Shown here piece by piece: positions 9,878 through 9,981 of a DNA stretch of 10,570 nt; within the stretch, counting starts at the first letter, position 1, and each line of letters begins with the position of its first letter. The position numbers and the translations under genes were made by a program. Under the pieces are notes generated by a model. It was not told the DNA's origin. It did not search any database and was given only the letters and a program-made list of their open reading frames with translations. The stretch comes from a virus. Where the stretch lies: the IMG/VR virus record IMGVR_UViG_3300031625_000826; one strand, written 5' to 3'.

Positions 9878-9981
9878 TACCCCTAGCAAGACTCGAACTT
9901 GCACGCCCGAAGGCACTGGTTCCTAATTATGAGGTTGCTTAACCTCTAGACCAGCGTGTCTACCAATTCCACCATAAGGGC
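9878..9981 (-). tRNA. Class-II tRNA-Leu-like gene (104 nt) with a 22-nt insertion in the anticodon loop (candidate intron). Removing the insertion restores the loop CUUAGGA, anticodon UAG. No CCA is encoded.
   Basis: Acceptor stem GCCCTTA/TAGGGGT. D-arm GTG-GAATTGGTAGA-CAC, a Leu-type D-loop. Anticodon stem CTGGT/ACCAG, enclosing 29 nt rather than 7. Variable arm T-GCC-TTCG-GGC-GT. T-arm GCAAG-TTCGAGT-CTTGC. Discriminator A73. Inside the insertion, GAGGTT pairs with AACCTC. The gene starts 5 nt after the stop of the upstream CDS. Confidence 0.55.

Follow-up and report, generated by a model that had tools for sequence, protein, structure and literature searches.

A conserved 22-nt hairpin insert in the anticodon loop of a phage tRNA-Leu(UAG) gene, a candidate non-group-I intervening sequence with relatives in other Leu and Arg tRNA genes

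To our knowledge, the introns in tRNA genes of bacteria and bacterial viruses are all self-splicing, and no bacterial tRNA intron is known that is spliced by proteins. Group I introns measure about 200 nt or more, fold around a P1–P9 core, follow a 5′ exon ending in U and terminate in G; those of bacterial tRNA-Leu(UAA) genes interrupt the anticodon loop at 34/35. Archaeal non-canonical introns are short, occupy many tRNA positions and have spread between tRNA genes. They are spliced by proteins, EndA recognizing a bulge–helix–bulge (BHB) or relaxed hBH motif and an RtcB-type ligase being needed for resealing. A BHB consists of two 3-nt bulges on opposite strands with a 4-bp helix between them and a splice site in each bulge. 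Anticodon loops are also cut and rejoined during infection with phage T4, where PrrC cuts 5′ of U34 and Pnkp and Rnl1 reseal the tRNA. In the collaborative homing described for cyanophage psbA, an intron without its own endonuclease relies on a neighboring free-standing homing endonuclease. For phage tRNAs, Devoto et al. reported in 2019 "enigmatic" introns of 76–93 nt in Lak megaphages and stated that phage tRNAs with introns had been unreported until then (PMC6784885). These Lak inserts were placed at 37/38 by eukaryotic-mode tRNAscan-SE, occur in Tyr, Phe, Gly, Thr and Leu(UAA) tRNAs, and one of them may itself encode a tRNA (PMC6784885). Beyond the Lak report, our literature search gave neither a description nor a mechanism for short phage tRNA inserts and no later mechanistic work; otherwise it returned only group I introns in tRNAs of Patescibacteria.

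In this work we analyze an interrupted tRNA-Leu(UAG) gene in a 10,570-nt stretch of viral DNA from IMG/VR, to which we refer as the window. Its insert resembles the Lak introns in several respects: it sits in a phage tRNA anticodon loop, is too short for a group I intron, is conserved among related phages, escapes bacterial-mode tRNA finders and has no known mechanism. Unlike the Lak inserts, it is a single hairpin of 21–22 nt at 32/33 that occurs in Leu(UAG), Leu(UAA) and Arg(UCU) tRNAs, and the likeness is a purely descriptive one. Like bacterial tRNA group I introns, it belongs to a bacterial or phage context, interrupts a tRNA-Leu in its anticodon loop and may have links to homing endonucleases. 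However, with 22 nt, a terminal A or T, no ribozyme core and no Rfam group I match at E values up to 10, it is not a group I intron, and the first-pass annotation of this DNA had rightly called it too short for one. As for the archaeal introns, removal by proteins including a ligase is proposed here as well. The T4 system illustrates that cutting and resealing of an anticodon loop at 33/34 by protein enzymes is feasible in infected bacteria, although T4 repairs one nick made by a host defense nuclease and no encoded insert is excised. New here is the finding of short non-group-I phage tRNA inserts in the form of a 21–22-nt hairpin cassette at 32/33 that is common to Leu and Arg tRNAs. The features of the locus are as follows.

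9878..9981, minus strand: interrupted tRNA-Leu(UAG) gene, 104-nt precursor, no encoded CCA (Rfam tRNA model and ARAGORN -i)
9948..9981, minus strand: 5′ exon with acceptor 5′ strand, Leu-type D-arm, CTGGT, C32 and U33 (ARAGORN cloverleaf); with a 32/33 junction, U33 is counted to the insert
9926..9947, minus strand, equally 9927–9948 if the junction is 32/33: 22-nt insert AGAGGTTAAGCAACCTCATAAT (ARAGORN -i; homologous inserts in the paralogue and in relatives)
9931..9946, minus strand: insert hairpin with GAGGTT at 9941–9946, loop AAGC at 9937–9940 and AACCTC at 9931–9936 (minimum free energy, MFE, fold)
9878..9925, minus strand: 3′ exon with anticodon TAG (9923–9925), G37, A38, ACCAG, 13-nt variable arm, T-arm, acceptor 3′ strand and A73 (ARAGORN)
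9989..10016, minus strand: weak sigma-70-like promoter match GTGACA-16-GAAAAT, 9 of 12 positions (a consensus scan match, not evidence of function)
10408..10435, minus strand: stronger promoter-like site TTTACA-16-TACAAT, 10 of 12 positions (a consensus match)

In the whole window, neither default ARAGORN nor a default Rfam gathering scan found a tRNA at 9981..9878. With permissive filters only, an Rfam scan of the region 9700–10150 matched model RF00005 over its full length (1–71) with 42.0 bits (gathering score 29; E 1.1e-7), its ends falling exactly on 9981..9878 and 27 nt of the anticodon loop being aligned as an insertion state. ARAGORN in intron mode called tRNA-Leu(tag) with the 22-nt intron agaggttaagcaacctcataat between the flanks ggtct and tagga. 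When the window was dinucleotide-shuffled 150 times (1.6 Mb), the same program called no tRNA, irrespective of intron mode. The coordinates given in the first pass are exact, and the strand had to be corrected to minus (9981..9878 reads GCCCTTATGGTGGAATTGGTAGACACGCTGGTCTAGAGGTTAAGCAACCTCATAATTAGGAACCAGTGCCTTCGGGCGTGCAAGTTCGAGTCTTGCTAGGGGTA). As default ARAGORN and Rfam runs miss such genes, phage tRNA inventories and arguments on codon usage may be incomplete.

Read directly, the gene has the Leu identity features ascribed to it before, i.e., A73, a Leu-type D-loop with G18 and G19 and a long variable arm of 13 nt (TGCCTTCGGGCGT), as well as a perfect T-stem of 5 bp. Its anticodon stem CTGGT/ACCAG, however, encloses 29 nt instead of a 7-nt loop. 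Taking out the 22 nt at 9926–9947 restores, as the first reading had it, the 7-nt loop CUUAGGA and with it a standard 82-nt class II tRNA-Leu(UAG). Default ARAGORN recognized this spliced 82-mer as tRNA-Leu(tag), whereas it rejected the unspliced form. The predicted spliced junction joins GCTGGTC to TTAGGAACC. Once the 22 nt are taken out, the sequence of the D and anticodon arms is GGTAGACACGCTGGTCT-TAGG-AACCAG, and the identical string is found in 65 of 81 uninterrupted tRNA-Leu(UAG) genes that we collected from IMG/VR as gapped-pattern matches. The body of the window gene is thus that of a genuine tRNA-Leu(UAG); BLAST matches of the window tRNA in annotated phages were likewise all tRNA-Leu. 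Upstream, the weak promoter-like match stops 8 nt before the tRNA 5′ end, and the stronger one precedes an ORF of 124/125 aa (9987–10364) that lies directly before the tRNA. ORF and tRNA might be co-transcribed, and their order is also kept in a relative of this phage, the contig L094.

All long ORFs of the window lie on the same strand. Their products include an ADP-ribosylglycohydrolase, an HNH endonuclease, an ornithine cyclodeaminase/mu-crystallin homologue, an FkbM methyltransferase, a 926-aa protein with major-vault-protein shoulder and repeat domains, an RNase T-type exonuclease and several proteins without a known function. Of all Leu codons, CUA is used least in these genes (8%). Among the 50,697 annotated phage genomes of INPHARED, we found no near match to the window and no close copy of its insert family or of two other insert families. 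The 194-aa protein encoded directly downstream of the tRNA is present on seven metagenomic contigs, five of which span the tRNA region and are 100% identical to the window over 161 nt. Six assemblies from different sources, the window and these five, thus share the identical interrupted gene. This identity leaves no sequence variation to analyze, and it excludes an assembly artefact because the six assemblies are independent. We therefore regard the chance that the gene reflects an assembly or sequencing error, or a tRNA-like sequence arisen by accident, as practically negligible: nothing but the failure of the default tRNA finders speaks in its favor, and orthologues in diverged phages and the absence of calls in the shuffles speak against it as well.

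Contig L002 of the window's phage extends the locus upstream and holds an array of ten tRNA genes together with small zinc-finger and HNH ORFs. Two of the array's members are 83-nt class II tRNA-Tyr genes; the phage also has an uninterrupted tRNA-Leu(UAG). Bacteria and organelles are the ones with class II tRNA-Tyr; the two Tyr genes hence indicate that the virus serves a bacterial translation system and that, judged by its tRNA genes, its host is bacterial. This agrees with the bacterial-type features that had at first been read from sigma-70 promoters. A profile of the 194-aa family retrieved 48 distant relatives from IMG/VR, mostly on contigs of 100–640 kb, which places the element in a lineage of large or jumbo phages. 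Relatives were also traced via P0003, P0008, P0009 and P0014, and their contigs were without tRNAs.

Within the insert, the MFE fold places a 6-bp hairpin whose stem is reached by just 1.9% of shuffles of the window insert. The first-pass annotation had seen this GAGGTT/AACCTC helix as a pairing of exon and insert; its six base pairs are present, but both strands lie inside the insert. Below the hairpin, the fold lengthens the anticodon stem by a 3-bp helix in which C32-U-A pairs with the anticodon UAG, and bulges of 2 nt and 5 nt appear, both on the 3′ strand. The fold energy by itself is unremarkable (z = −1.45, not significant), and the case for the insert, as we read the sequences, is a comparative and not an energetic one. 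The junction of the window copy is ambiguous by one base, lying at 32/33 or 33/34 and not at 37/38. The only junction compatible with all seven inserts found in this work is 32/33.

The likeness to BHB introns that the first pass had put forward turned out to be wrong. An intron of this archaeal or eukaryal type, cut by an EndA/Sen-family endonuclease, is very improbable here, although archaeal non-canonical introns can have this length (22 nt) and an anticodon-loop site, and a related phage encodes RtcB, which is the splicing ligase of archaea. Neither a BHB nor a relaxed hBH motif is present, both bulges falling on one strand and the 6-bp helix being internal to the insert, and by inspection no alternative 4-bp helix between exon and insert with opposed bulges could be drawn. 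The position of the junction and the bacterial type of the tRNA-Tyr genes, and hence of the host, equally differ from the archaeal situation. Furthermore, no EndA/Sen-like domain was found in the Pfam lists of the loci examined, which stem from incomplete genomes. RNase III excises intervening sequences, as in 23S rRNA, from an extended duplex by staggered cuts that leave 2-nt 3′ overhangs; cuts at 32/33 would instead leave a 3-nt 5′ overhang relative to the C32–G36 pair of the MFE fold, and we rejected this mode of excision. As modeled, the insert structure thus matches no known splicing substrate, neither in BHB nor in RNase III geometry. We set aside Cas6-type processing, in which each hairpin is cut only once. 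An RNase E-like cut was not retained either: all seven members have an RN/UU context at the 3′ junction, but this context is weak in composition, and there is no fit at the 5′ junction.

Related loci, searched with ARAGORN in intron mode, carry the same kind of insertion. The window's phage itself has a second interrupted gene, a tRNA-Leu(UAA) with a 22-nt insert (L001:1001–1107), which lies outside the window about 3.1 kb upstream of the interrupted tRNA-Leu(UAG). L094, a 169,795-bp ENA contig (ERZ26661968 NODE_17), holds a tRNA-Leu(UAA) interrupted by 21 nt and, at the syntenic position, a tRNA-Leu(UAG) interrupted by 22 nt. L096, which is more distantly related, has a 22-nt insert of the same design in a class I tRNA-Arg(UCU). 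Source samples of these phages include SRR9019762, ERZ27247685, JGI 3300027847 and ERZ26661968. By tblastn, L001 and L094 have a common gene order, namely interrupted tRNA-Leu(UAA), a family of 159/135/257 aa, a C92-like gene (67% identity), the 124-aa gene (55%), interrupted tRNA-Leu(UAG), the 194-aa gene (55%) and the RNase T gene (71%). Since both interrupted genes are syntenic, both Leu insertions are most likely older than the split of these phages. The ORFs between the two interrupted tRNAs of L001 encode nothing RNA-related; they gave a weak Peptidase_C92 match only. Inserts of the same architecture occur in tRNA-Leu(UAG) of two unrelated lineages, L227/L523 from IMG/VR, where the gene sits in a Tyr-Ser-Leu cluster, and L366, a 546-kb contig binned as Bacteriovoracaceae, where the context comprises SmpB, an OGFr_N protein and many unknowns. 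Neither has proteins in common with the window's phage. We do not claim L366 as a cellular example, as its context could be that of a mis-binned huge phage.

In all seven members, the loop is laid out as Y32, 1–3 nt, a hairpin of 4–6 bp with a 4–6-nt loop, a tail of 4–6 nt and then U33-U34-N-N-R37-A38. The length of the insert stays at 21–22 nt throughout the family while its sequence drifts. Equivalent hairpins are present in seven of seven, with 34 of 36 cells paired; five of the six positions show two to four types of pair. The inserts of the four L001 and L094 genes are still recognizably homologous (alignment z 3.5–4.8). Removing the insert restores Y32-U33-NNN-R37-A38 in each case, and the anticodon always fits the tRNA body: UAG or UAA for Leu bodies and UCU for the Arg body, which is of class I and has A20. 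Gene, insert and hairpin hence recur in conserved form in three tRNA species.

The tRNA bodies covary accordingly with a cloverleaf under constraint. In the cloverleaves of the six interrupted Leu genes, 97.8% of cells pair and both sides have changed in 12 of 23 pairs, counts that go back to about three independent lineages and hence to few events. None of 500 shuffles came up to these values, and slid partners reached 33–53%. Between L001 and L094, pairs 7–66, 50–64 and 52–62 of the UAG genes and pairs 27–43, 28–42 and 29–41 of the UAA genes have changed on both sides and still pair. Such double-sided stem changes after the split of the two phages point to selection for the tRNA fold and argue against a dead gene. 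The degenerate tRNA considered in the first pass thus finds little room: we rejected a tRNA pseudogene, as syntenic orthologues persist at 55–71% identity of the flanking proteins with compensatory changes in the stems. As a caveat, the interrupted tRNA-Leu(UAA) of L001 is mismatched (U·U) at two positions of its acceptor stem.

A closer relative, L089, encodes a 194-aa protein 63% identical to that of the window, and the nearest tRNA upstream of its gene is an uninterrupted tRNA-Leu(UAG). The acceptor and D arms of this tRNA are near-identical to those of the window tRNA, so that the two genes differ by the precise presence or absence of 22 nt. The anticodon arm and the variable arm of the L089 tRNA agree with the intact paralogue on L002. 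This mosaic suggests gene conversion, and the L089 tRNA is probably orthologous to the window tRNA.

From the conserved and structured insert, an intron-like element, i.e., the novel small intron of the first pass, emerges as the best supported though unproven reading. We propose that the 22 nt are a short intervening sequence that is excised by an endonuclease and whose flanks are resealed by an RNA ligase, and we give this proposal about an even chance. Transcription would start at the weak site 10016..9989 or proceed together with the 124/125-aa ORF from the stronger site 10435..10408. The precursor would fold as a normal class II cloverleaf that is incapable of decoding. An endonuclease would then make two cuts flanking the cassette, one after Y32 and one before U33, with 33/34 equally possible for the window copy. 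An RNA ligase of RtcB or Rnl type, of either phage or host origin, would finally join the halves to an ordinary 82-nt tRNA-Leu(UAG). The cassette is one of a small family residing at a single loop position in tRNA-Leu(UAG), tRNA-Leu(UAA) and tRNA-Arg(UCU) of related large phages. This shared position suggests that the cassette either spread between tRNA genes or was inherited through their duplication.

Alternatively, the insert may never be removed and the gene may give rise to a tRNA-like RNA with a blocked anticodon, which we consider unlikely but worth weighing. Such an RNA could be charged by LeuRS without decoding, could act as a decoy for anticodon nucleases or tRNA-binding defense proteins, or could be a tRNA store gated by a hairpin-binding protein; the regulatory switch and the decoy suggested in the first pass are thus possible, though less favored. 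Conserved cloverleaf and hairpin call for a function, which need not be splicing. Bacterial LeuRS does not read the anticodon, and the Leu versions would hence be chargeable as they are. Furthermore, both the window's phage and L094 carry an uninterrupted tRNA-Leu(UAG) beside the interrupted copies, so that the interrupted gene is not strictly needed for decoding, and no splicing enzymes were found nearby. However, an RNA that stays unspliced leaves unexplained why Y32, U33, an isotype-matched anticodon, R37 and A38 are intact in seven of seven members. Nor does it account for the presence of this cassette in a tRNA-Arg, which is unlikely to be functional without splicing because the anticodon loop is recognized by ArgRS. 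A nuclease decoy, in turn, would be expected to mimic the target loop and not to disrupt it.

For the splicing proposal, the enzymes would have to come from the phage or its host, and in about 25 kb of the window's phage we found no candidate endonuclease or ligase. The intact tRNA-Leu(UAG) of both phages, the low use of CUA and the mismatches in the UAA copy of L001 weigh against the proposal as well. The related phage L090 encodes RtcB two genes away from a flanking-gene homologue. When the L090 RtcB was compared by tblastn with all loci, no general association with interrupted tRNAs appeared, as the only matches were L090 itself, L121, L401, L267 and L483. The RtcB loci of L401 and L121 contain a different, Pedobacter tRNA-like RNA, and the candidate tRNA of L267 is not convincing. 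Jumbo phages commonly have RtcB, Rnl1 or Rnl2 for the repair of tRNAs (PMC7824862). With a conserved 22-nt insert that is neither ribozyme nor BHB substrate, the question of what bacterial RtcB normally acts on becomes testable on one small RNA. Bacterial RtcB-type ligases can splice tRNAs when placed in yeast. More tentatively, we may speculate that the inserts represent an undescribed class of tRNA introns in bacterial viruses, i.e., mobile hairpin cassettes of 21–22 nt at 32/33 that would be removed by a protein endonuclease plus ligase without BHB or ribozyme recognition. If so, bacterial and phage RNA ligases such as RtcB would gain a true splicing substrate, and phage-infected bacteria would cut and rejoin tRNAs in an undescribed way.

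The insert might also act at the DNA level, as a selfish or protective insertion that splits the target of a homing endonuclease, the disabled copy being tolerated beside an intact paralogue. Free-standing homing endonucleases attack phage tRNA genes, and other insert families indeed adjoin homing endonuclease genes: in L258 a GIY-YIG gene follows 50 nt downstream of the tRNA, and in L330 only 2 nt separate the tRNA from the end of an upstream HNH gene. In this phage, the tRNA array and the window contain scattered HNH genes, the intact tRNA-Leu(UAG) paralogue is there, and homologous cassettes in different tRNAs imply mobility. We nevertheless regard this explanation as rather improbable. A disabled gene should decay, but here cloverleaf pairing is kept through double-sided changes, and no endonuclease gene adjoins the window tRNA, the nearest HNH gene being 7 kb away. 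The parallel to collaborative homing is that an insert splits the endonuclease target and must be spliced out to be harmless; it ends where the psbA insert is a self-splicing group I intron and has its endonuclease as a neighbor. As the insert is harmless only if removed from the RNA, a role in DNA would in part complement splicing. If the insert shields tRNA genes from homing endonucleases in addition, it would link DNA conflict between phages to RNA processing.

In IMG/VR, the exact insert is absent, and a search for the same stems with a gap of 10–40 nt returned nothing. The hairpin motif combined with a T-arm gave seven matches there, all of which we discarded as P-loop codons inside genes. 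A specific census of 2.9 million IMG/VR contigs for an insert of 19–24 nt at 32/33 followed by TTARRA gave only L227/L523 and one unconvincing match, L522, which has a weak anticodon stem and is rejected by ARAGORN. Inserts of the window type are hence rare. A broader pattern, a Leu-type D-arm with a T-arm about 22 nt too distant, was searched in metagenome, viral and genome collections with at least 120 matches each. Among the matches listed, most were normal or unparsable tRNAs, and a uniform parse left 46 with loops above 9 nt. Credible families among these listed matches include 26-nt inserts at 36/37 in tRNA-Leu(UAA) of L258, L129, L138, L167 and L321, and of L125 with a slightly different helix. 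The L258-type inserts form a 7-bp UUAACGG/CCGUUAA helix whose stagger fits an RNase III-like geometry. Also among the matches listed are 21-nt inserts in L153, L260 and L330, in which the junction and hence the anticodon are ambiguous, and loops of 39 nt in L246, L196 and L306.

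The phage of the window carries a second interrupted tRNA-Leu gene, which lies beyond the window:

L001:1001-1107, interrupted tRNA-Leu(UAA), upstream of the tRNA in the window by about 3.1 kb, as that tRNA is oriented

Its insert is a 22-nt hairpin, ctagggttagacaacccgatcg, homologous to the insert of the window's tRNA, and its acceptor stem contains two U.U mismatches. The same architecture was found at a further locus:

L366:5856-5959, interrupted tRNA-Leu(UAG), on the 546-kb contig CALFYV010000090.1, binned as Bacteriovoracaceae

Here, an SmpB gene is located about 530 nt upstream of the interrupted tRNA, and nearby lies a gene with an OGFr_N domain, as also found in the phage relative L091. 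Possibly, the contig belongs to a huge phage and was put in the wrong bin, and is not a bacterial chromosome.

Other tRNAs have different inserts in their anticodon loops:

L096:1007-1091 and L091:15162-15247, two related class I tRNAs with a 13-14-nt insert
L258:7552-7666, L129:1671-1783, L138:2124-2236, L167:1301-1413, L321:5928-6040 and L125:838-951, tRNA-Leu(UAA) with a 26-nt insert at 36/37

The class I pair, from two phage relatives, features the insert A(A/C)AGCACAAGCGA(A), which is distinct from the hairpin cassette; neither copy contains a hairpin. Without its insert, the L091 tRNA has the loop TTTCAAG with anticodon UCA and is predicted to read UGA. In the 26-nt family, the insert end pairs with the anticodon (UUAACGG/CCGUUAA), and the two junctions are hence staggered by 2 bp, similar to RNase III products. 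A gene for a 152-aa RNase H-like protein (PF04308) adjoins the tRNA in L129, L138 and L167. Moreover, free-standing homing endonuclease genes occur near interrupted tRNAs:

L258:7716-8360, L330:1156-1608 and L306:2623-3282, GIY-YIG (SegE-like) and HNH endonuclease genes

They are separated from the interrupted tRNA by 50 nt, 2 nt and about 2 kb, respectively, and this closeness suggests that the inserts may shield tRNA genes against endonuclease cleavage.

Unusual tRNAs with Leu anticodons were also seen in the tRNA array of the window's phage (L002) and of its relative L094:

L002:1770-1844, 1856-1930 and 2091-2165; L094:2640-2714 and 2805-2880, tRNAs of 75-76 nt

With anticodons UAA, CAA and UAG, a Leu-like D-loop and A73, these "tRNA-Leu" lack the long variable arm and are thus class I-shaped; ordinary class II tRNAs for Leu, Ser and Tyr stand in the same array. 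A tRNA-like RNA of about 115 nt is conserved in Pedobacter genomes:

L401:5103-5187 (Pedobacter gandavensis), also in at least L409, L347, L370, L383, L393, L394, L398 and L121

Its D-arm is of the Leu type, and a T-arm and an acceptor stem are also present, but the middle section is not that of a tRNA; Rfam does not recognize the RNA. RtcB is encoded about 2 kb away in L401 and less than 300 nt away in L121. The RNA is possibly a tRNA mimic similar to Y RNA and linked to an RNA repair operon.

The proteins encoded in the window itself include:

1332-5288 (-), conserved block of ADP-ribosylglycohydrolase, HNH endonuclease, ornithine cyclodeaminase/mu-crystallin homologue and FkbM methyltransferase
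5372-8152 (-), 926-aa protein; domains: major vault protein shoulder (PF11978, E 5e-24), vault repeat (PF17795)

The block is present in the relatives L089 and L094 as well, and relatives add phosphoribosyltransferase and NMN-transporter genes, a hint of a role in counter-defence or in the metabolism of NAD or ADP-ribose. The 926-aa protein is kept in L089 and L098, and probably in L094; a bacteriophage is an unexpected place for such vault-like proteins.
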